From UHGV virus genome UHGV-0097046: a DNA stretch of 32,754 nucleotides; one strand, written 5' to 3'. Origin of the DNA: a virus. Each line of letters starts with the position of its first letter. Position 1 is the first letter of the stretch. This document shows positions 22,789-32,754 of the stretch, piece by piece. The translations under genes were made by a program, and so were the position numbers. A model generated the notes under the pieces. That model worked only from the letters and a program-made list of their open reading frames with translations, ran no database searches and was not told the DNA's origin.

Positions 22789-23208
22789 ATGCTAAAAACT
22801 AGGCTTATCACCGATTACATCAATTCTTTAATAGGTCAGGAGTTCGTTCAAGGCGAGAATGATTGCAATCTCATTGCATGTAAGATCATCGATATTCTCG
22901 CTGGTACTGACCTATATAATTCTCTTTATAAAAAATATTCAACTAAAGAAGAAGGCTTGAAAATCTGCAAAGAATTAAGCGGATATTCAAACATCCTTCA
23001 ACCAATAAAGAAACATTTCAAATTAGTCACTGATGATTTACAGGACGGCGACTTACTGGTCACAGCCCACAAATTAGGAAACCGTAATTATTATTCCGTA
23101 GTTCCTCATTATTCCGGTTATGGCCTCGTTGAAGAAGATGGTATCTGGATGACCATTCCTGTTTCAGACATTGACTATGAACAAGTTTATAGATTCGGGG
23201 GTGAATAA
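22789..23208 (+). CDS. Tail assembly protein candidate (lambda gpK/gpI position), possible NlpC/P60-like Cys-His fold
   Basis: ATG at 22789 with GGAGG RBS (track ORF begins upstream at 22633); conserved Cys (ENDCNL) and downstream His residues; stop overlaps J-like start. Confidence 0.4.
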   Translation: MLKTRLITDYINSLIGQEFVQGENDCNLIACKIIDILAGTDLYNSLYKKYSTKEEGLKICKELSGYSNILQPIKKHFKLVTDDLQDGDLLVTAHKLGNRNYYSVVPHYSGYGLVEEDGIWMTIPVSDIDYEQVYRFGGE

Positions 23209-26200
23209 TGGGATTTGAAATATTGGTAGGCGCGGTGATCGCTGGTGCTTCGGCGGGGATGGCGGCAGCCGCAACATTTTCTGTTATGACCGCAGTCGCT
23301 ATCGGTATGGCTGCTGGTGCAATGACCTTGATCGCTTCCACTGTAGGCGCACCAAAAACACCTAAAGTACAAAGCCCAGATAATGCGGTGACACTAGGAA
23401 CATCAAACGATCCGAAGACAGTATTACCCGTTCTTTTCGGTGTTACCCGTACTGGTACAAACTGCGTTTACAAAGCAATTTCTAAAAGAGAAAACAATAA
23501 GTTAGTGCAAATCTTCGCTGTAGCAGAGGGTGAAATCGACCACTACAAAGCACTGTTTATCGATAATAAAAATGTTCTTGTTGGTAAGAACATGACGATC
23601 CGTGATGGCATTCTCGATAAGGGCAACATTAAAGAAGAATACCGGAAAGTGTTGGAGGTTGAGTTCCGCACGGGTAAGAATCCTAACACCGCTTTGTCAC
23701 TGGCAAAACAGCATTTAGGCTCAGACTGGACCGATGCTTACAAGGGTAACGGCATTGCAACCATGTGTATTGTGTTACGTCGTGATGACAAATCTCTTGC
23801 TGCTGGTGTTGATATCCTTCAACCAAATAGCCAAGTGGCAGTCGATGTTATGGGCTTAAAGATTCGTAACCTTGAAACCAATGCTATTGAGGCTAGCACT
23901 AACGGCGTGGACCAGATTTTCCACTACCTAACAAATGAAAAATATGGCTTATCCGTACCAATTGAAAACATTAACGTTGATTCATTCCTGAAAGTACGTA
24001 AGCAAGTACGCCAGATGGATTTGCATTCAAACGGTGCATGTGATCCGAACGCCAGCTTTAAAGAGAACTTAACTAGCCTTATGCAGACTTTCGGCGGGGT
24101 GATGTTCGAATCCTTCGGAAGAATTACCCTGAAACTGGATGCTCCTGATATTGTTAAGCATACCTTCAATGAAGACAATATCATGATGGGTAAGGTATCA
24201 CTGAAAACAGGTGGCACTAACGGTTATTTCAATACCATTAACGCGATGTATCAGGAACCATCAATTGACTATTCCGAGCAAATGCTACGTTATCCGGCTG
24301 ATGCTGAAAACGATGCTACTATTCGTCAAGATGGTCGAATTATCGCTAAAGATATTGAATATCGTTTTGTTAAGTCTAAAGCCCAGATTGATAAACTTGC
24401 GAGTGTAGAACGAAATAAATCTCGTATCACTCAGGTTATCAGCTTTATGACTACTGACGCATTCACTGCCGAAGTTTGGGACGTTATCAGCGTAACCTAT
24501 GATGAATTGAAACTGAATAATTCACTTTGGCGTATTACCGCAATTGATCGTTCTATTGATTCTGGTATTGCTGGGATGATGACTATCACCGCTACAGAAT
24601 ATAATTCTCAGGTTTATACTGACCTGAACTATGCGGCAACTCCAGACAATAGACCAAGTGGTTTACCGGATTCAATGACAGTACAGAAGCCTACTAATTT
24701 CAGAATTAAGGCAACTGGCGAGACGATTTACGGTAAAAACGTTACTTTGACATGGGATGCACCGGAAGATTTTAACCGCTACGGCTTCCAGATTGATTAC
24801 CGTGTAAGCGGATCACCTAACTGGATTAAGTTGGGACAGACTTCACAGCAAATTTTCAGTGTCAATGCACTGGCAAAAGATCGTTCCTACGATTACCGAG
24901 TTTGTGCTTTCGGTATCATCGCGCGATCCGATTGGGTAGAACTGGTTAACCAGAATCCTACCGTTACCTATGAATTGCCGACTCCGGTTATTCGAATCAA
25001 AAATCAGGGTAGCACGCCAGGAACTTTCGAAGGTAATGATCTGATTATCGAATGGGAAAACCAGCAACAATTAGATGTGATGATCAACGGTGAAACTAAC
25101 AAGTTTAGTGACCTGTTTGAAGCATACATTATCAAGGTGACTAACAAGGCTGGTAAGTCTATTCAGTACCGTACCCGCGATCCTGAATCATGGACTTATA
25201 CGCTTGATATGAACCAGTTTAACGGCCTTTCGCGTCAACTGACGGTAGAAGTATCAGCTAAGGGCTATAACAACTCAGAGAGCGCCCCAGCGCGTTTAGT
25301 GGCTATCAACCCACAACATAAGCCAATGAAAGGTTTTAGTGCGCGTGGTGGCTTTAATACTGCGTTTGTTAGCTGGGCGGATGACGTAGAACATGACTAT
25401 GCAGGGTCAATCATCCAGTATGCAACCGACAACACTTTCTCAGATGCAAGGGCAGTAAGCACGAATAGTGTTAGCCATACTTCCTTTGATATTGCTGACG
25501 GTGATTATTATATCCGTGGTGCTCACTACGATATTTTCGGTATGGATGATGCTGTTTGGTCTGAACCGTATTTCATGCAAATGAAATCTACCATTAGCTG
25601 GGACGATCAGGACAAAGAAGCACTGGAAGACCTGATTGGTTTACAAGATCGCTTAGATGAAACCATCGCTGATGCTATTGCTCAAGCTGGCGCTAATGCC
25701 GATGCTAAAATTGATGCAATGCATAAGCAAATCACTACCGAGACGGGTAAAACTGTTCAAGCCTCAGCCGATACCTTAAAGAGTCTGATTGCTTCTGGTG
25801 ATAAGGCAAGTTCAACTAAGATTGATCAGGTTAAAGCTGAACTGAAAGGCGATATCACCAAAGAAGTTAGCGCCTCCGCTACAACCCTGAAACAAGCTAT
25901 TGCTACCAGTGAAGCAGCAAGCGCAAGTAAGATTGACCAAGTTCGGGTAGAAATGGATGGCAAGATTGCTGGTGTGAATCAGGAAGCGGACGTTAAGATC
26001 GATGCTTTGAAGGGAACCATTAACAGCAAATACAATCTAGCAGTTAATGCAGATGGTCGCGTGGCTGGCATTCACATGAGCGCAACTAACGATCCGGCAC
26101 AACCGACTAAAATCATCTTTACGGCTGATAAAATTGCTGTAGCTCCGCAGAACGGGACCGATGTTTGCCCGTTTGGTATCGAAGGTAACAAGGTTTATCT

Positions 26201-26984
26201 CGATAATGCGATGATTCGTAATGCCTCAATCGGATCAGCACAGATTACTGATGCTAGTATCACCACGGCTAAAATTGGCAATGCTGCGATCAATTCAGCG
26301 AAAATCCAAGACGGCGCGATCACCAACGCCAAGATTGTAAATGGCGCAATTGATAACGCTAAAATCGGTAACTATATCCAGTCTTCCAACTGGAACGGAT
26401 CTACCGGATGGCATATCAATAAGAACGGTAGTGCTACGTTCATGAACGCTACCGTTAAAGGTAATATCACGGCTGATTCCGGTACTCTGAACAACGTCAC
26501 GATTAACTCTAGCTGTGTTATTAAGGGTATGCTTGAAGCTACTCAGGTTAAGGGTGATTTCGTTAAGGTGATTGGTCGTAAGTTCCCACACCGTGATGTT
26601 AACGTTGATAATGGTTATGGTGGCTATCCGCAAGGTACAGTAACCGTTCGCGTTGAAGATGATCACAAGTTCGATCGTCAAATCGTTATTCCGGCAATTA
26701 GTTTTGGTGGATTGCGAGCGCGTGAAGGGTCGAACAATAATACCTATTACGACACCTGTCGCCTGATTGTTCGTAAGAATGGGTCAGAGTTGTATAATAG
26801 GGCGTATGGCGGTAATACTGGTCTTTACTCAGGTGTTATTGATATGCCAGCGGGTAAAGGTGCTGTGACCTTGACCTTTGAAGTGCAATCAAGCGCAATC
26901 AACAACTGGACGCCTAGCACATGGATCAGTGATTTAACTGTAATGGTAACTAAAAAAGCTACTACGGGTATTACTGTTTCTTAA
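23208..26984 (+). CDS. Central tail fiber / host specificity protein, lambda gpJ-like (1258 aa)
   Basis: C-terminal 150 aa clearly similar to the receptor-binding end of lambda gpJ (SGTLNNVTINSSC...; TVTVRVEDDHKFDRQIVIP; IDMPAGKGAVTLTF; LTVMVTKKATTGITVS); internal fibronectin-III-like segments; hydrophobic Gly/Ala-rich N-terminus. Confidence 0.88.
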   Translation: MGFEILVGAVIAGASAGMAAAATFSVMTAVAIGMAAGAMTLIASTVGAPKTPKVQSPDNAVTLGTSNDPKTVLPVLFGVTRTGTNCVYKAISKRENNKLVQIFAVAEGEIDHYKALFIDNKNVLVGKNMTIRDGILDKGNIKEEYRKVLEVEFRTGKNPNTALSLAKQHLGSDWTDAYKGNGIATMCIVLRRDDKSLAAGVDILQPNSQVAVDVMGLKIRNLETNAIEASTNGVDQIFHYLTNEKYGLSVPIENINVDSFLKVRKQVRQMDLHSNGACDPNASFKENLTSLMQTFGGVMFESFGRITLKLDAPDIVKHTFNEDNIMMGKVSLKTGGTNGYFNTINAMYQEPSIDYSEQMLRYPADAENDATIRQDGRIIAKDIEYRFVKSKAQIDKLASVERNKSRITQVISFMTTDAFTAEVWDVISVTYDELKLNNSLWRITAIDRSIDSGIAGMMTITATEYNSQVYTDLNYAATPDNRPSGLPDSMTVQKPTNFRIKATGETIYGKNVTLTWDAPEDFNRYGFQIDYRVSGSPNWIKLGQTSQQIFSVNALAKDRSYDYRVCAFGIIARSDWVELVNQNPTVTYELPTPVIRIKNQGSTPGTFEGNDLIIEWENQQQLDVMINGETNKFSDLFEAYIIKVTNKAGKSIQYRTRDPESWTYTLDMNQFNGLSRQLTVEVSAKGYNNSESAPARLVAINPQHKPMKGFSARGGFNTAFVSWADDVEHDYAGSIIQYATDNTFSDARAVSTNSVSHTSFDIADGDYYIRGAHYDIFGMDDAVWSEPYFMQMKSTISWDDQDKEALEDLIGLQDRLDETIADAIAQAGANADAKIDAMHKQITTETGKTVQASADTLKSLIASGDKASSTKIDQVKAELKGDITKEVSASATTLKQAIATSEAASASKIDQVRVEMDGKIAGVNQEADVKIDALKGTINSKYNLAVNADGRVAGIHMSATNDPAQPTKIIFTADKIAVAPQNGTDVCPFGIEGNKVYLDNAMIRNASIGSAQITDASITTAKIGNAAINSAKIQDGAITNAKIVNGAIDNAKIGNYIQSSNWNGSTGWHINKNGSATFMNATVKGNITADSGTLNNVTINSSCVIKGMLEATQVKGDFVKVIGRKFPHRDVNVDNGYGGYPQGTVTVRVEDDHKFDRQIVIPAISFGGLRAREGSNNNTYYDTCRLIVRKNGSELYNRAYGGNTGLYSGVIDMPAGKGAVTLTFEVQSSAINNWTPSTWISDLTVMVTKKATTGITVS

Positions 26985-27088: not shown

Positions 27089-27367
27089 ATGACTGAAATT
27101 ATATATGGCGGTATCGGTGTTATCGCCTTAATTTGCGGTGGTCTTTGGAGACTTCACCGAAATCAATTAGCAACTGAAAATAGGTTATCTAAATTGGAAT
27201 CCAGCGACGCATTGTTAAACCAGAAGTTTGAGACGATGCAGAATAACCATACTCAGATTGCTGAACGTGTTTACCAAATGGAACAAACACTACACGGTAT
27301 AGAGAAGAAAGTGGTTGCGATGGATGCTAAATTTGACCAAGTTCTCGACATACTCAAACAAAAATAA
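27089..27367 (+). CDS. Membrane-anchored coiled-coil protein (92 aa); holin or i-spanin-like lysis candidate
   Basis: One N-terminal TM helix (IIYGGIGVIALICGGLW) then coiled-coil; location in lysis region. Confidence 0.45.
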   Translation: MTEIIYGGIGVIALICGGLWRLHRNQLATENRLSKLESSDALLNQKFETMQNNHTQIAERVYQMEQTLHGIEKKVVAMDAKFDQVLDILKQK

Positions 27368-27385
27368 TAATAAAGGGGTGAATAT

Positions 27386-27556
27386 ATGAAGAATAAACTT
27401 AAGAAATATTTTGGTTATCTCTTGATTGTCGCCCTCACTTATAACGTAGCTATTAGACCTCTGCTAACGTCCTTTGGGCTTGAACTCCCGGCTATGACCG
27501 TGGATGAACAATTGCTAAGGACACTGGCGGGGGGCTTTTCGTTATTAGGGGGCTAA
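27386..27556 (+). CDS. Small membrane protein (about 56 aa), holin candidate; not in ORF track
   Basis: ATG after TAAAGGGGTGAAT RBS; hydrophobic segment YFGYLLIVALTYNVAI; exact end uncertain by 1-2 nt. Confidence 0.3.
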   Translation: MKNKLKKYFGYLLIVALTYNVAIRPLLTSFGLELPAMTVDEQLLRTLAGGFSLLGG

Positions 27557-27557
27557 C

Positions 27558-28241
27558 ATGGCAACCAGTACCAATAAACGAAACGCTCTAAGGACTAAGA
27601 AAGCGTTACGGCAATGGTCTGAAAAGGCAACCGATACATTCGAAAGGGCACTAGGGGAAGGGGCGATCTTTGCTTCCAGAGCACTCCAGAAGAAGATTAA
27701 CAAGAATGTTGATAGACCTACTCGATGGACTCAACAAGCTGTAGGTAATACCAACTACAAGAACCGATCAGGGACGAGACACCAAATCTTCATCAAGGGC
27801 GCAAGGGATAAGGACAAGAAGATCGGCAGTCAGGATGACTATCTGAAACACTATTTCGATGGTGGCAAAATCAATAAGCTAGTGCCAATCGCTAACGGTA
27901 AGGTCTTAGACGCCCACGGGAACATTAAGGCCATCAAAGGCGGTAAGATGATGCGTAACATCGAAAACGGCAACTTCATCAAGGTAGAAAACAAGGAAGG
28001 AACTTTTATCATGAAGAAGTACAAGCCTAAGAAATCCCGAACCAAACGCGCTAGGAATGGATCGGCGGTGGCAAAACGTCGCTTAGAGAAACGCATCCAG
28101 AAACAGAGTAAGCGAATTGTTGCCGTTAAGTCGGATAAAATTTCTACTCGTTATTCGACGCTAGGATCGTGGGAAAGCAACGAGGAAATGATGCTTAAGA
28201 ACATTAATAAGCACATTAAATCGCGCATGAGATACGTTTAA
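27558..28241 (+). CDS. Highly basic K/R-rich protein (227 aa), function unknown
   Basis: ORF start overlaps preceding stop; about 25 percent K+R; no family recognised. Confidence 0.55.
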   Translation: MATSTNKRNALRTKKALRQWSEKATDTFERALGEGAIFASRALQKKINKNVDRPTRWTQQAVGNTNYKNRSGTRHQIFIKGARDKDKKIGSQDDYLKHYFDGGKINKLVPIANGKVLDAHGNIKAIKGGKMMRNIENGNFIKVENKEGTFIMKKYKPKKSRTKRARNGSAVAKRRLEKRIQKQSKRIVAVKSDKISTRYSTLGSWESNEEMMLKNINKHIKSRMRYV

Positions 28242-28279
28242 TCCATAAATACCCTCATAGAATCTTATGGGGGTATAAC

Positions 28280-28627
28280 ATGGCTAAAAATATTTTCACT
28301 GAATTTCCTACTTATCCGGTCGATCAGCTTTCCGGTATTTTTATTAATGGCATTAGTCCAGAATCAATGACTTATGATTTTGAGGCGAAGAGAGTTAAAC
28401 ATAAACAATATAAAGAATGTATCCGTGACCATGAAAAGGGGACCGTGTTTTGTGTCGCTACATTGGCTAAACGTCCTAAGTATCGTTTTCGTGTCGAGCA
28501 AGAAGTCGATGTAGTTAATCCTTATAGCTTTAATTGTCTGGGCGATGCACGCGCGGTGTGTGTAGGCACTGCTCCTTATTATATCAAGGGTATGCGCTTT
28601 ATTGGTTATATCTTCGAAATGATCTAA
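28280..28627 (+). CDS. Hypothetical protein (115 aa)
   Basis: ORF between basic protein and endolysin; no family recognised. Confidence 0.5.
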   Translation: MAKNIFTEFPTYPVDQLSGIFINGISPESMTYDFEAKRVKHKQYKECIRDHEKGTVFCVATLAKRPKYRFRVEQEVDVVNPYSFNCLGDARAVCVGTAPYYIKGMRFIGYIFEMI

Positions 28628-28636
28628 GGGGGTAAT

Positions 28637-28990
28637 ATGTTAAGCAAACATTTTTCTCGCAAGGAATTTAAATGTAAATGCGGAAAATGTGATTATGATA
28701 CAATCGACGCTGAATTACTGGTAATTCTTGAGGATGTACGAGAGCACTTCGGTAAACCAGTGATTATTAACAGTGGCAACCGTTGCCCGACTCATAACAA
28801 GAATGTAGGCGGGGCAGCCAATAGCTATCACGTTCGAGGCCGTGCGGCTGACATTGTTATCAAGGGTGTCTCACCTGATATTGTTCATGCTTATCTTGAT
28901 GGGAAATATCCTACTCAATACGGCTTAGGAAAATATAAAACATTTACGCATATCGATTCCAGATCAAAAAAATCACGGTGGAATGGATAA
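28637..28990 (+). CDS. Endolysin, peptidase M15 (zinc D-Ala-D-Ala carboxypeptidase / L-Ala-D-Glu peptidase-like)
   Basis: Motif SGNRCPTHNKNVGGAANSYHVRGRAADIV with H-x6-D and downstream H zinc ligands typical of M15/hedgehog-type peptidases; TAAGGGGGTAAT RBS. Confidence 0.8.
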   Translation: MLSKHFSRKEFKCKCGKCDYDTIDAELLVILEDVREHFGKPVIINSGNRCPTHNKNVGGAANSYHVRGRAADIVIKGVSPDIVHAYLDGKYPTQYGLGKYKTFTHIDSRSKKSRWNG

Positions 28991-29180
28991 AACAAAAGCG
29001 CCTCTGGTGGGCGCTTTTTTGTTAGAATATGCTGGCGACGTTAGCTATATTTCTGACTATTTTTTCATTATAGACAAATATACCGCAGACGATAAAGTCG
29101 TTTTTGACGAAGTAGATCCGTCTCTGGTTGAAGTAATGAAAGAACCGGAAGACCTAGAGCTTGATTTAAGCCAATTATAG
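28983..29180 (+). CDS. Doubtful small acidic ORF (65 aa)
   Basis: Starts inside endolysin stop region and contains the terminator hairpin at 28996-29020; may be non-coding. Confidence 0.25.
   Translation: MDKTKAPLVGAFLLEYAGDVSYISDYFFIIDKYTADDKVVFDEVDPSLVEVMKEPEDLELDLSQL
28996..29020 (+). terminator. Intrinsic terminator (aagcgcc-tctggtg-ggcgctt + TTTTTT) ending the late operon
   Basis: 7-bp stem and T6 run directly after endolysin stop. Confidence 0.7.
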
Positions 29181-29204
29181 ACTCTCTAACGCAATTAAAT
29201 TAAA

Positions 29205-29226
29205 AAGGGGTACGGATGTACCCCTT
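29205..29226 (-). terminator. Hairpin aaggggtac-ggat-gtacccctt with T-rich flank on the minus strand; terminator for the leftward recombinase operon
   Basis: 9-bp perfect stem; A-run upstream on plus strand gives a U-tract on minus-strand RNA. Confidence 0.55.
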
Positions 29227-29262
29227 AAAGCGTTTGGTTCGTTATACGGCGATTTAGGCCGC

Positions 29263-29535
29263 CTATGATTTATTTTCTTGTTCTATGAAAATCTTTCTCA
29301 CCTCATCAGAATAAATGTCTAGTGATTCCTCATAACATTTTCTGTATTCACCGTAATTACTGGTGGTCTTTTGACATAGCAATTTCAATGTCTTATGTGC
29401 TCCATCAATGAAAGCATCTTCTCTATAGGTTAGCGGTCTACGCATTTCTTGGTCTACGGTTGCCAATGCCAGGCAAGAATTCATAGATAAAATCAAACCT
29501 AAAATCTTAATCATCTTCATTAGCTTAAATTCCAA
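29263..29535 (-). CDS. Small secreted protein (about 83-90 aa) with signal peptide
   Basis: N-terminal hydrophobic segment MIKILGLILSMNSCLALA with AxA-type cleavage site; overlaps recombinase stop by 11 nt (co-transcribed). Confidence 0.55.
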   Translation of the reverse strand: MEFKLMKMIKILGLILSMNSCLALATVDQEMRRPLTYREDAFIDGAHKTLKLLCQKTTSNYGEYRKCYEESLDIYSDEVRKIFIEQENKS

Positions 29536-31219
29536 ATTCTTGTAATGGACCTGGTATTTCTTCTTCTGGTTTCCAGTTCTTATCTGTCAGCATGTCTAAA
29601 CATGGATGCAGAACAAGCCCGTTACTCTCCAGAATCTGCCTATCATTGATAGTCTTCAAATCAACGAAGATCCGGCCTTTCCTCGGTCCTCTTGAATTTT
29701 CTATTACAACTCTCTGGGTCTTGCCATCGATGTATTCCAGTACAAACAAGTTTTTGTACTTGTCAATCCTGCTACACCCGATCCGTTTTAGAGCTTGCTT
29801 AATCTTAAACCGGACCTTAATGCGATCCTCGTTGTAAACATCTTCTAAATCAAATTCTGCGAGCTTCTCCCAGCCTTGAGAGTCAACAGAATACATTTCC
29901 TCTTCTGCCATCTTAATTTGATTGTAGAGTGTTTCACGCTCGCTATTGAGGGTAGTAATCTGATCGGCTAGCTCCTTCGTTGCTCCTGTCATAGCAGAAA
30001 GGGTAATCAGGTTATCAATCTTGCGTGATATTTCATCAATCTGTACTTTCAAAGCCGGAACCGGATTAGCCTTATCTTCAGCAATCCAGATTTTATCAGC
30101 CAGCAATTGCAATACAGCTTTCTCTAATTGGTCGCCGCGAAAACTCCAGTTTGTATGCACACATTCAATACGACTAGAGCGCATTGCATCGCATGAATAA
30201 CGATATTGGTTAGGCCGTCTGTTTGTTCCTTTCACCTTAACCATAGCGGAACCGCAATGTTCACATTTCAATAGACCAACACCACTAAGCAAGGGAATAG
30301 GTTTAACTTCTTCTTTGTCTCCAAAGTTACATGCTCTAACACCAATGCTTTTCTTAAGGTGATAAAACTCAGCGTCATCTAGCACACGAGGATAATAATC
30401 CTTTAACTCATACTTAACGCCATCTACAGAGATTTCCTTGATACCAATCAAAGCGCGGGTATGGAACAACCTTTCAATCATTGCCCGTGACCAGTTTGAA
30501 TGCCTCTTGTGACTTGCGGCTGGTGGTGGTGTGTATGTCGCGTTAAGGTGATCCAGTATCTCGGCGGTTGACCGTCCATTCCTGCGTAATTCCACAACTT
30601 CCTGAACAATAGGGAAGAAGACCGGATGAGGAAGCACATAACCAGATGTGGTATCAGTCCACCACATATTCTTTCCAATTTCCTCGATTGCAACAGCCGG
30701 ATTTTGTGGATTTTCTTGATGAGCTTTAATCTTAATCAGTGCGCTTGAGTTAGTACGATTGCGCTTAGTCTGGCTTTCCTCATTACCACGGATGAATAAA
30801 AGGATGGAGAACATCAGGTCCATCGGGTTAGCGGTAACAGTATCCAGCGAGTAGATCTTGTTATCCATGCCAGTAACAATGGTTATCCCCCTACGGATGA
30901 TTGAAAGGAATAACTCCTGCGCACTGACAATATCGGCACGGGATAAACGGTCCAAGTTTTCGATGAATAGCCAGCTACCAACAGGAACGGATCTACCTAT
31001 TGCATCAAGGAAACGAGATAGCGCCCCTGTTTTGGAGTTAGCACCCTTAAACGCAGATACACCCAGATCCTGATAATCATTTACCAGTTCAAGGTCATAC
31101 TTTACCGCAATCTCTCTAGCCATCCTGATTTGTCGTTCATAACTCGAACCATCATTCTGACGCATAGACGAGAAGCGAATATACGAATACAGTTTAGTTT
31201 TCATACCATTTCCAAACAA
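29525..31219 (-). CDS. Large serine recombinase (serine integrase/resolvase family, 559-564 aa)
   Basis: N-terminal catalytic domain motifs YIRFSSMRQ (active-site Ser) and DRLSR; large C-terminal region with Cys-rich zinc-ribbon-like segment (CEHCGSAMV...YRYSCD...ECVH) and coiled-coil; track start is TTG at 31219, alternative ATG at 31204. Confidence 0.85.
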   Translation of the reverse strand: MFGNGMKTKLYSYIRFSSMRQNDGSSYERQIRMAREIAVKYDLELVNDYQDLGVSAFKGANSKTGALSRFLDAIGRSVPVGSWLFIENLDRLSRADIVSAQELFLSIIRRGITIVTGMDNKIYSLDTVTANPMDLMFSILLFIRGNEESQTKRNRTNSSALIKIKAHQENPQNPAVAIEEIGKNMWWTDTTSGYVLPHPVFFPIVQEVVELRRNGRSTAEILDHLNATYTPPPAASHKRHSNWSRAMIERLFHTRALIGIKEISVDGVKYELKDYYPRVLDDAEFYHLKKSIGVRACNFGDKEEVKPIPLLSGVGLLKCEHCGSAMVKVKGTNRRPNQYRYSCDAMRSSRIECVHTNWSFRGDQLEKAVLQLLADKIWIAEDKANPVPALKVQIDEISRKIDNLITLSAMTGATKELADQITTLNSERETLYNQIKMAEEEMYSVDSQGWEKLAEFDLEDVYNEDRIKVRFKIKQALKRIGCSRIDKYKNLFVLEYIDGKTQRVVIENSRGPRKGRIFVDLKTINDRQILESNGLVLHPCLDMLTDKNWKPEEEIPGPLQEFGI

Positions 31220-31267
31220 AAACGCCCCTACCGCGTATTATAACGATAGGGGCTAGGTGATTAAAGA

Positions 31268-31681
31268 TTAAAGAATTTCACGGCAGCTAATCAGGGAATA
31301 AGACGTATCACCTTTTTTAACATCAAATATAGGCGCGCCATCTACAGAATGCAGATATTTGATGTAGGATTTACCATCTTCGGAACCATAATATTCTTCT
31401 TTCTCGTTCTTATCTTCTTTCAGTTTTGGGCTTTTGATTGTTTTATCAAATACCGGATCGTTGAAAGCAAATTGACTATTATCATCATTCACTCGAACCT
31501 TTACACCGATAAAACCACGGTATTTGCCAGACGGCGCATGATAATAACGGTCGCCATCACGAAGATATTGTGTATCATCTCCTTTATGTTCGAAGTAGGA
31601 ATTACACACATAATAGGTATTAGCATTCGCAGCACCAACCAAACCCAGAGCAAGAACAACACCAGCGATAATCTTTTTCAT
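31268..31681 (-). CDS. Secreted protein (137 aa) with signal peptide
   Basis: MKKIIAGVVLALGLVGAANA signal sequence; two Cys; no family recognised. Confidence 0.6.
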   Translation of the reverse strand: MKKIIAGVVLALGLVGAANANTYYVCNSYFEHKGDDTQYLRDGDRYYHAPSGKYRGFIGVKVRVNDDNSQFAFNDPVFDKTIKSPKLKEDKNEKEEYYGSEDGKSYIKYLHSVDGAPIFDVKKGDTSYSLISCREIL

Positions 31682-31723
31682 AGTAGAACTTCCTCTTGTT
31701 GTTTGAATTACGATATATTTATA

Positions 31724-31852
31724 TCGTTAAAAGTTAATACTAATAATCAGACCAAACACAACCGCGCCAATCAAATCCATCCAGTCAATACACAAGCCGC
31801 TATATTCTTTCTTGAATGTCTTAGATGAAATGCCATCATGAAATTGTTTCAT
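31724..31852 (-). CDS. Tiny membrane peptide candidate (about 42 aa, MKQFHDGISSKTFKKEYSGLCIDWMDLIGAVVFGLIISINF); a second about 25-aa hydrophobic peptide lies just upstream (about 31855-31935)
   Basis: GGGGTGA and GGAG RBS-like sequences before each ATG; C-terminal TM segment; below ORF-track cutoff; coordinates approximate. Confidence 0.3.
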
Positions 31853-31953
31853 TGCTCACCCCATACTAACGACAATATAAGAAAGACTAATCATAGTTGT
31901 GAGACTACCTCCCACGAATGAGATAAAAGCTAACATGTTTGATTCTCCAGTTT

Positions 31954-31979
31954 AAAAAGCGGTGGGAATTGCACCCACC
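31954..31979 (-). terminator. Minus-strand intrinsic terminator (hairpin ggtggg/cccacc followed by GCTTTTT on the minus strand)
   Basis: 6-bp stem, 7-nt loop, U-tract on minus-strand RNA immediately after stop of 31983..32423. Confidence 0.5.
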
Positions 31980-31982
31980 AAA

Positions 31983-32423
31983 TTAGAAATTAATTAAGCG
32001 CGAACGATGGTCAGAGTATCCAGCAAACCTTTTTTCGTATAATTCGAAACACGTTTTATATTGCTCAATCTTCCAACCGTAGCGGGTAATCTTATTCAGT
32101 AGAACAATCACGGTATTCTCATCTAGGTATTGTCCTTGCTGTCCAATTACATAAGTCTCACGATTCAATCTCAGCTTACGGAAACCTTTAACACCTAATT
32201 CCTTAGCCACTGCTTTAATCTCTTTAATCTCACCTTCTGCGGCTACATATTCAGCGTCGATAATCTCAGGTGATGATCTCAGTGCTACCAGAACTAAGGC
32301 CATTGCTTCTTCTTCGGTACGAGCAACACCAGCTTTCTCGAAAGTCATCTCACCAAATTTACGAATCATGATATTGAACATTGTCTGTATTCCGTTTAAA
32401 TCTGCGGGAATAGTACCCGCCAA
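31983..32423 (-). CDS. Hypothetical protein (133-146 aa)
   Basis: Track start is TTG; first ATG (MFNIMIRKF...) about 42 nt downstream is preferred because a hairpin (gcggg...cccgc) occupies the upstream part. Confidence 0.5.
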   Translation of the reverse strand: MAGTIPADLNGIQTMFNIMIRKFGEMTFEKAGVARTEEEAMALVLVALRSSPEIIDAEYVAAEGEIKEIKAVAKELGVKGFRKLRLNRETYVIGQQGQYLDENTVIVLLNKITRYGWKIEQYKTCFELYEKRFAGYSDHRSRLINF

Positions 32424-32431
32424 ATTAGAAA

Positions 32432-32704
32432 TTACTTCTTGCTGATAAACTCTTTAGCGATAAAGTTGATTACTTCTTTCAGCTTCTTGTCTGTATCGAT
32501 GCACGCTGGTAATTCTTCTTTAATATCCTGCGGCAGATACACATTGCCTTTAAAGTGGAGGAAACCATCATTACCAATCATGTAGGAGAACATCCATTCA
32601 CAATCGTTATCCGCTTCCCAGAGCGCCACGGTCTCATCGTCAATCAAGGTAATGTCCATGTTGCGACGCGCTGCGTAGTTGATGATTGCTTTACCGATGT
32701 TCAT
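32432..32704 (-). CDS. Hypothetical small acidic protein (90 aa from ATG at 32704)
   Basis: GAGGGGG RBS 8 nt upstream of the internal ATG (MNIGKAII...); the track start at 32728 lacks an RBS. Confidence 0.5.
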   Translation of the reverse strand: MNIGKAIINYAARRNMDITLIDDETVALWEADNDCEWMFSYMIGNDGFLHFKGNVYLPQDIKEELPACIDTDKKLKEVINFIAKEFISKK

Positions 32705-32754
32705 TGTTGTACCCCCTCGTGTTATCATGGGTACATGATATTAGGGAAACCTAA

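Follow-up and report, generated by a model that had tools for sequence, protein, structure and literature searches.

What do two small signal-peptide proteins do on either side of a phage recombinase? The question is raised by the right-hand part of UHGV virus genome UHGV-0097046, a stretch of 32,754 nucleotides that was analysed whole and is called the window here, in which two open reading frames (ORFs), ORF1 and ORF2, flank the gene of a large serine recombinase. A first-pass annotation of this DNA had seen in them exported proteins that, by analogy with Cor of T1/phi80-like phages and Llp of T5, might mask the phage's own receptor or exclude other phages. We propose that ORF1 and ORF2 are unrelated genes of the moron type which encode small Sec-exported proteins, that they occupy two recombination-prone slots flanking the integrase, and that they probably protect the cell envelope; to this reading we give a probability of about one half. 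Its parts are not equally firm: ORF2 is probably an exported accessory protein, ORF1 is more likely than not to be one, and a role in exclusion or defence is put forward tentatively. The genes in question are the following.

29263..29520, minus strand: ORF1, 85 aa from its ATG; mature protein of about 65 aa with three predicted helices, Cys49 and Cys62
29525..31204, minus strand: large serine recombinase, 559 aa from its ATG; Resolvase, Recombinase and Zn_ribbon_recom domains, phrog_95 integrase
31268..31681, minus strand: ORF2, 137 aa
31622..31681, minus strand: signal peptide of ORF2, MKKIIAGVVLALGLVGAANA, with near-identical nucleotides in an unrelated 81-aa payload of related prophages
31268..31621, minus strand: mature domain of ORF2 plus stop, 117 aa; predicted eight-stranded beta-barrel and swappable payload

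Export signal, coding status and family of ORF2

Both ORFs exist on the minus strand, one on each side of the recombinase, and begin with Sec-type signal peptides, as had been proposed. The window has 276 ORFs that start with ATG and reach 50 aa or more, and only five distinct ones pass a crude Sec-signal-peptide heuristic; ORF1 and ORF2 are among them, and the top score is that of ORF2. Both present the features of Sec export and signal peptidase I processing, namely a basic n-region, an uncharged hydrophobic h-region and small residues at -3 and -1. The N-terminus of ORF2, MKKIIAGVVLALGLVGAANA/NTYY (the slash marks predicted cleavage), has a positively charged n-region, a hydrophobic core and an A-N-A cleavage motif; it divides into MKK, IIAGVVLALGLVG and AANA/N, with cleavage predicted between A20 and N21, and a Shine-Dalgarno sequence, AGAGGA, stands 9 nt upstream of the start. 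The mature chains of the two ORFs are hydrophilic (grand averages of hydropathy, GRAVY, of -0.9 and -1.0), with exactly two cysteines in each.

The pairwise ratio of non-synonymous to synonymous substitution rates (dN/dS) of ORF2 ranges from 0.11 to 0.50 and its codon log-likelihood, 0.32, is typical for real genes of the window; by these measures ORF2 is clearly a real gene under purifying selection. No Pfam, PHROG, NCBIfam or PADLOC family matches ORF1, ORF2 or the two small ORFs upstream of ORF2, s41 and s26, and the earlier statement that neither ORF1 nor ORF2 carries an enzymatic motif is thereby borne out. The family of ORF2 comprises six clusters in a collection of 5.8 billion proteins, with members from Salmonella, E. 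coli and unnamed assemblies; when 1.84 billion representatives were searched with a profile there were nine matches, including a lipoprotein member with an LTGC-K lipobox, and the family is absent from 185,579 species-representative genomes. Judged by its sequence, ORF2 is the founder of a tiny new protein family, of about ten clusters among billions of proteins. The signal peptide, Cys26 and Cys133 are invariant across the homologues, and a loop stretch, D-K-T-I-K-S-P-K-L-K, is conserved in most members. In a 114-aa sequence from a Logan assembly (P0005), ORF2 residues 1-85 run on into a translation of the antisense strand of s41; this is most likely a fold-back misassembly and not a real inversion.

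Predicted fold of ORF2

The AlphaFold2 model of ORF2 is all-beta (predicted local distance difference test, pLDDT, 87; predicted template modelling score, pTM, 0.78), and for mature ORF2 the confident prediction is a soluble beta-barrel of eight strands. Cys26 and Cys133 lie in the first and last predicted strands, near the ends of the mature chain, where they would form a disulfide that staples the barrel. The predicted strands are mostly 3-6 residues long and there is no C-terminal aromatic signal; together with the hydrophilicity of the chain, this speaks for a soluble barrel in the periplasm and against one in the outer membrane, and on these counts barrels of the Lom/OmpX/Ail and OmpW-like kinds were ruled out. 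Fold matches of ORF2 in BFVD are uncharacterised phage lipoproteins and secreted proteins. A match to Adhesin_Dr (E-value 0.099) was dismissed as chance. The most conserved part of ORF2, residues 55-86 (about 31424-31519; VKVRVNDDNSQFAFNDPVFDKTI), resembles residues ~62-88 of E. coli ExbD (VYLSVKADNSMFIGNDPVTDETM); this likeness is probably also chance, with an E-value of 0.16 in the PDB search and no ExbD/TolR in the Pfam scan of the family members.

The fold bears on the most concrete sub-hypothesis for ORF2, one based on fold resemblance, according to which it is a periplasmic inhibitor of peptidoglycan hydrolases like MliC, PliC or PhiA and would blunt the tail lysin of an incoming phage or the lysozyme of the host, as T4 Spackle blunts the tail-associated lysin of incoming phages. 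With MliC, PliC, PhiA and ACP, ORF2 would share a small periplasmic eight-stranded barrel with a cysteine near each end (N- and C-terminal, as in E. coli MliC), and its family comprises soluble and lipoprotein forms, as do PliC and MliC. However, profile-profile alignment (hhalign) of the ORF2 family with MliC/PliC reached a probability of 13% and covered the signal peptide only, PF09864 matched none of 10 family members at E-values up to 10, and the inhibitory loops of MliC, SxSGAxY and WxKG, are not conserved in the ORF2 family, whose lipoprotein member lacks the first loop entirely; the invariant motif of the ORF2 family is instead its own D-K-T-I-K-S-P-K-L-K. Homology to MliC/PliC, suggested by eye from YxC, SG.Y and KGD, was rejected on the hhalign result and the lack of family-wide motif conservation, and we consider hydrolase inhibition rather unlikely.

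A fixed leader and signal peptide with exchanged mature domains

The surroundings of ORF2 are organised as a constant upstream part and a variable payload. The constant elements and the downstream boundary are as follows.

31224..31253, minus strand: strong terminator hairpin after ORF2, -20.5 kcal/mol, z-score -3.4; kept in all related loci
31691..31725, minus strand: 35-nt leader GATATAAATATATCGTAATTCAAACAACAAGAGGA in the gap between s41 and ORF2, with a 7-bp inverted repeat and the Shine-Dalgarno sequence; weak hairpin, -6.8 kcal/mol, z-score -2.6
31727..31852, minus strand: s41, 41 aa; N-terminus conserved (MKQFHDGISSKTFKK), C-terminal segment hydrophobic; dN/dS 0.09-0.19
31856..31936, minus strand: s26, a hydrophobic micro-ORF of 26 aa, MLAFISFVGGSLTTMISLSYIVVSMG, with GGAG upstream

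The leader was used as a probe on IMG/VR and metagenome contigs, and the matches were pooled with loci from E. coli genomes (loci carry L numbers below). By sequence comparison across these loci, ORF2 is one of at least four interchangeable payloads behind a fixed leader (5' untranslated region) and signal peptide. The ORF2-type barrel has 135-139 aa, with alleles 40-100% identical to the mature domain of the window. A lipoprotein barrel (P0015, with the LTGC-K lipobox), a distant member of the ORF2 family, occupies the slot in L043 and L048. The third type is the unrelated 81-aa helical protein, which has two cysteines and the same signal peptide as ORF2, and the fourth has 113 aa and combines a membrane segment at its N-terminus with a coiled coil; the 81-aa protein follows it in tandem wherever downstream sequence is present. 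Between ORF2 and the 81-aa version, nucleotide homology runs through the signal peptide and ends at the predicted cleavage site; the 3' boundary of the slot is the conserved terminator hairpin just before the recombinase.

Upstream, s41 precedes every payload type, and s26 is present in L003-L005 and L012, the loci checked for it, its hydrophobic pattern being kept in Salmonella and other relatives. When E. coli, Salmonella and metagenomic loci are aligned, no leader departs from the others by more than a 2-nt deletion (L005) or one substitution (L012); in four loci synonymous sites of the coding regions are near-saturated, yet the leader differs by no more than a 2-nt deletion. Operator, promoter, translational element and mere recombination handle are all conceivable roles for this leader. 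Among 5426 complete E. coli genomes, 57 carry the block of s26, s41, leader and signal peptide and 26 the mature domain of ORF2, and alleles and payload types turn over fast between near-identical phage backbones.

These observations would fit a bolder version of our proposal, in which the locus ahead of the integrase works as a modular 'socket' for periplasmic defence: s26, s41, leader and signal peptide would be constant and the payloads swapped, each with a different exclusion specificity. Recombination exactly at the signal-peptidase cleavage site would then exchange unrelated periplasmic payloads, and each prophage variant would gain a distinct specificity against competing phages or envelope-targeting weapons. 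We regard this version as conceivable but doubtful.

Comparison with Cor and Llp

A masking protein of the Cor/Llp type would attach, from the periplasmic side, to the outer-membrane receptor that its own phage uses and so prevent re-adsorption. The first-pass annotation had leaned on this analogy and on closeness to the receptor-binding gene, which lies as follows.

23208-26984, plus strand: gpJ-like tail-tip protein, 1258 aa

Closeness holds in a loose sense: ORF1 and ORF2 are downstream of this gene by 2.3 and 4.3 kb, they lie on the opposite strand, and six plus-strand ORFs intervene. T5 Llp is a lipoprotein, its gene is adjacent to pb5, and a Cys11-Cys58 disulfide constrains its termini (PMC9586334). 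ORF1 and ORF2 may be likened to Llp and Cor (phrog_1119) as small phage-encoded exported proteins with action on the periplasmic side, and the invariant cysteines of ORF2 near the mature termini, with their putative bond, recall Cys11-Cys58 (PMC9586334); one branch of the ORF2 family, found in the same slot, is a lipoprotein. The cysteines of ORF1, Cys49 and Cys62, are not at its termini.

There are also differences. After cleavage ORF2 has about double the length of mature Llp. The lipobox check, run with a PROSITE-type pattern, found none in ORF2 or in ORF1, whose LSMNSC has a disallowed N at -2. The match of ORF2 to the Cor family has an E-value of 0.19 and covers residues 1-38 only, that is the signal peptide, and ORF1 has no PHROG match; in hhalign the ORF2 family aligned with T5 Llp at a probability of 9% over 12 signal-peptide residues, and ORF1 gave no alignment with Llp. 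Nor does the payload track the receptor-binding end of gpJ, in either direction. In L005 the gpJ C-terminus is 97-98.5% identical to that of the window, whereas ORF2 is only 62-66% identical; in L025, L029, L030, L032 and L033 the gpJ ends are 96-98% identical and the payload is the 81-aa protein; in L001 and L002, conversely, ORF2 is 97-100% identical and the gpJ ends 82-83%. A gpJ C-terminus of 96-100% identity thus co-occurs with ORF2, with a 62%-identical allele of it, or with the unrelated 81-aa payload. Since the type of payload varies independently of this end of gpJ, strict masking of the phage's own receptor is disfavoured.

At the level of sequence, membership of ORF1 and ORF2 in the Cor/Llp family is rejected, and we do not expect the two proteins to act as lipoproteins of that family matched to the phage's own receptor-binding protein. 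All prophage variants might share one receptor, which would leave own-receptor masking possible, and the terminal cysteine pair of ORF2 together with the lipoprotein branch may keep a looser functional analogy with Llp alive; as an explanation of the locus, however, receptor masking is improbable.

Integration site and the insertion carrying ORF1

The position of both ORFs in the prophage is set by its right end. In E. coli E275a, a 99.6%-identical copy comes to an end at hicB, which is truncated at its 5' end, and ydcR lies beyond. This identifies the window as a lambda-like E. coli prophage that is inserted in hicB, with the ORFs in the arm proximal to the attachment site (att), and the serine recombinase is the prophage integrase with hicB as target. 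Relatives with a ~92%-identical recombinase are inserted in ycdX, and so is a Salmonella relative (73%); one further relative was placed near ydiJ/ydiH. Modest changes in the serine integrase appear to retarget integration. The features at the two ends of this arm are given here.

29205..29226, minus strand: intrinsic terminator hairpin at the end of the recombinase-ORF1 unit, -14.5 kcal/mol, z-score -3.8, then UUUUUAAUUU
29263..29524, minus strand: gene-exact 262-bp insertion carrying ORF1, from its stop codon to its ATG plus 4 nt (GCTA)
32729-32754 of the window and beyond (L001:11841-11960): truncated hicB, then ydcR

In alignment with L011 and L013, the ycdX-type relatives lack exactly 29263-29524: there, GGCCGC abuts the recombinase stop, which adjoins the conserved sequence with the terminator. 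The flanks of the insertion are conserved in 56 genomes, 17 of which carry full ORF1, and the GC content of the insert, 34.7% as against 41.9% for the window, is within the lowest 5% of 262-nt windows. The ORF had first been given as 29263..29535; the ORF itself stands, whereas the TTG start at 29535 is less credible, the ATG at 29520 being most likely the start and also that of the sole database cluster of ORF1 (P0007). From this ATG the N-terminus reads MKMIKILGLILSMNSCLALA/TVDQ, laid out as MKMIK-ILGLILSM-NSCLALA/T with cleavage at A-L-A/T, and AlphaFold2 predicts from the single sequence three helices with a pLDDT of ~90 over residues 31-80. ORF1 has no similarity to the 81-aa or 113-aa alternative payloads of the ORF2 slot.

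The ATG stands 5 nt past the recombinase stop, with GCUA alone between UAA and AUG, so that ORF1 lacks its own promoter or a clear ribosome-binding site; it would therefore depend on integrase transcription and translational coupling, and we infer that it is made only while the integrase is transcribed. The same arrangement, with a common terminator and with the finding of ORF1 only alongside the hicB-type recombinase allele (99-100% identity), could suggest that the serine integrase has in ORF1 an accessory factor, for instance a directionality factor. A cleavable signal peptide would, however, take ORF1 out of the cytoplasm and away from the DNA, 92%-identical recombinases function in prophages without ORF1, and the co-occurrence is accounted for equally well if the hicB-type lineage, 98-100% identical over the region, has a recent common ancestor; we consider such a role very improbable.

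In place of ORF1, the relatives with ~92%-identical recombinases carry 1.5-3.5 kb of other cargo between recombinase and endolysin: a GIY-YIG nuclease, a DEAD/DEAH helicase, CapR-like proteins and proteins of no assigned function. Over the relatives L003, L004, L005 and L011-L013, the helicase is UvsW-like and the proteins of no assigned function have 332-390 aa. The stretch between recombinase and endolysin looks like a prophage hotspot for defence-type cargo.

Coding status of ORF1 and points against the proposed reading

Several points weigh against our reading, and most of them concern ORF1. Its codon score, 0.11, falls between those of real 85-codon windows (0.29+-0.12) and of spurious ORFs (-0.16+-0.12, maximum 0.14, so that it overlaps the top of the latter); its intact copies in five other aligned loci differ by three synonymous and three non-synonymous changes, a count too small for proof of selection; the Prokaryotic Genome Annotation Pipeline (PGAP) annotates it in none of the six RefSeq records inspected (L001, L002, L006-L009); and it forms one 90% cluster in the protein collection, with no homologues. 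For the two ORFs together, the fold matches are generic (small barrels for ORF2, helical fragments for ORF1) and indicate no target, and no convincing sigma-70 promoter was seen for the s26-s41-ORF2 unit or for the ORF1 unit. The slot of ORF2 is not exclusive to exported proteins either, as a 348-aa payload without signal peptide occurs once (L026). The exclusion or envelope-protection role is a plausible candidate function, and expression in lysogens is putative.

The codon score, the missing annotation, the single cluster and the lack of a clear Shine-Dalgarno sequence could also mean that ORF1 is a chance open frame in AT-rich filler DNA behind the integrase, and non-coding. Against this, the edges of the insertion match the ORF1 stop and its ATG plus 4 nt, of the six frames only that of ORF1 has a positive codon score, ORF1 is intact in the five other copies, and a well-formed signal peptide is followed by helices predicted with high confidence; by our own estimate, an 85-codon open frame at ~35% GC has a chance of ~0.3% per frame. 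We find a chance frame unlikely, and argue that ORF1, an orphan, is nevertheless a gene, the gene-exact indel being the most telling argument. It is also an example of a small prophage gene overlooked by standard annotation.

Gene order and neighbouring features of the prophage

The prophage type is lambda-like, ~35 kb long and found in E. coli and Salmonella, with both cargo slots at its att-proximal end. Its plus-strand block encodes a gpA-type terminase, a lambda-family portal, a capsid protease and the tail-tip protein, whose C-terminus is ~40% identical to lambdoid J proteins; the six small plus-strand ORFs that follow include an M15 endolysin. The last 3.5 kb are on the minus strand and read, inward from the right end, a 98-aa ORF, a 146-aa ORF, a hairpin, s26, s41 and ORF2, then the strong hairpin, the recombinase, ORF1 and the final hairpin. 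Further features are these.

28637-28990, plus strand: M15 endolysin
31960..31980, minus strand: weaker hairpin with T-run upstream of s26, -11.4 kcal/mol, z-score -1.7

Between the gpJ-like gene and the endolysin, 27089-28627 (plus strand) encodes four proteins: one of 92 aa, in which a membrane segment at the N-terminus is combined with a coiled coil, a membrane protein of 56 aa, a basic one of 227 aa and one of 115 aa. None of these ORFs matched a recognisable holin or spanin family. The weaker hairpin belongs to a 40-nt repeat (repeat family D2) with copies at 31956-31995 and 32398-32437, of 83% identity, which stand after the 146-aa and 98-aa ORFs. The stem differences between the copies are compensatory (GGTGGG/CCCACC versus GCGGG/CCCGC), a sign that cassettes may be bounded by an element whose structure is conserved. 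The loop of the strong hairpin at 31224-31253 contains a perfect TATAAT ~40 nt upstream of the recombinase ATG, and the ORF2 terminator and a possible integrase promoter may overlap. An Rfam scan of 28900-32754 gave nothing meaningful.

Near-match and protein-level searches of 50,697 phage records gave no match for the region, ORF1 or ORF2, two scans of species-representative genomes showed no relative, and literature searches found no description of the prophage or of the two proteins; by these comparisons the prophage lineage is one with no close isolated relative carrying ORF1 or ORF2. In strain HCP5S3_I4 (NZ_CM149869.1; H21) the region is otherwise 99.9% identical and is broken by IS5 and IS1A insertions, with the recombinase annotated merely as a zinc-ribbon fragment; this prophage copy is decaying.

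Relation to known morons and the proposed function

Phage morons and lysogenic-conversion cassettes of the Hendrix-type definition include lambda bor, lom and HK97 gp15. ORF1 and ORF2 resemble them in a clean pattern of presence and absence among closely related genomes, with gene-sized boundaries, in a GC content below that of their flanks, and in their terminator-bounded place in the non-essential arm beside int and att. Unlike typical morons, ORF1 brings neither a promoter nor a ribosome-binding site and is carried on the integrase message, and the ORF2 slot exchanges the mature domain only, keeping leader and signal peptide, and not the whole gene. The more general part of the first-pass annotation is upheld here: these are small, exported, non-enzymatic accessory proteins in variable, moron-like prophage positions, the usual class for exclusion and lysogenic-conversion functions.

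Which of these two functions is served is a matter of weighing. As conversion factors comparable to lambda Bor and Lom, the proteins would benefit the host in gut or infection (stress, serum, colonisation) and would have no anti-phage role. The att-proximal end is typical of conversion genes, the units are insulated by terminators, the payloads are exported, and the carrying strains come from humans, pigs, cattle and chickens. However, the family is confined to a single prophage lineage, the fast turnover of alleles and payloads on near-identical backbones fits a conflict-driven function better, and the neighbouring variable cargo of the relatives consists of nucleases and helicases of the defence-island kind. 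We judge a pure conversion role to be a possible, although not a favoured, explanation.

T4 Spackle, T4 Imm and P1 Sim are periplasmic or membrane exclusion proteins that act against DNA entry by incoming phages. The layout of s26, s41 and ORF2, two membrane micro-proteins with a periplasmic protein, may be compared with them, and no sequence similarity to them was seen in the PHROGs scans. In the reading that we prefer, that of two unrelated moron-type genes in slots flanking the integrase, both proteins would work in the periplasm, as binders of another envelope component and not as enzymes. What they would most probably provide is protection of the lysogen's envelope, of an exclusion type, against incoming phages or envelope-attacking enzymes, and the diversity of payloads would reflect an arms race.

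Implications

Exported morons near int and att are already a known kind. The new elements here are the protein families of ORF1 and ORF2, a slot in which leader and signal peptide stay fixed while mature domains are exchanged, and a cassette that is coupled to the stop codon of the integrase gene. If the two proteins had no anti-phage effect, the Cor/Llp analogy would not be transferable to signal-peptide ORFs merely by their location in the tail-proximal arm. If they do protect the lysogen, two uncharacterised envelope-acting exclusion or conversion factors would be added, one of them a new barrel family with soluble and lipoprotein forms. By exchanging mature domains only, prophages could diversify their periplasmic functions while reusing a single export signal, and the 35-nt leader may serve as a search handle for further candidate periplasmic effectors.

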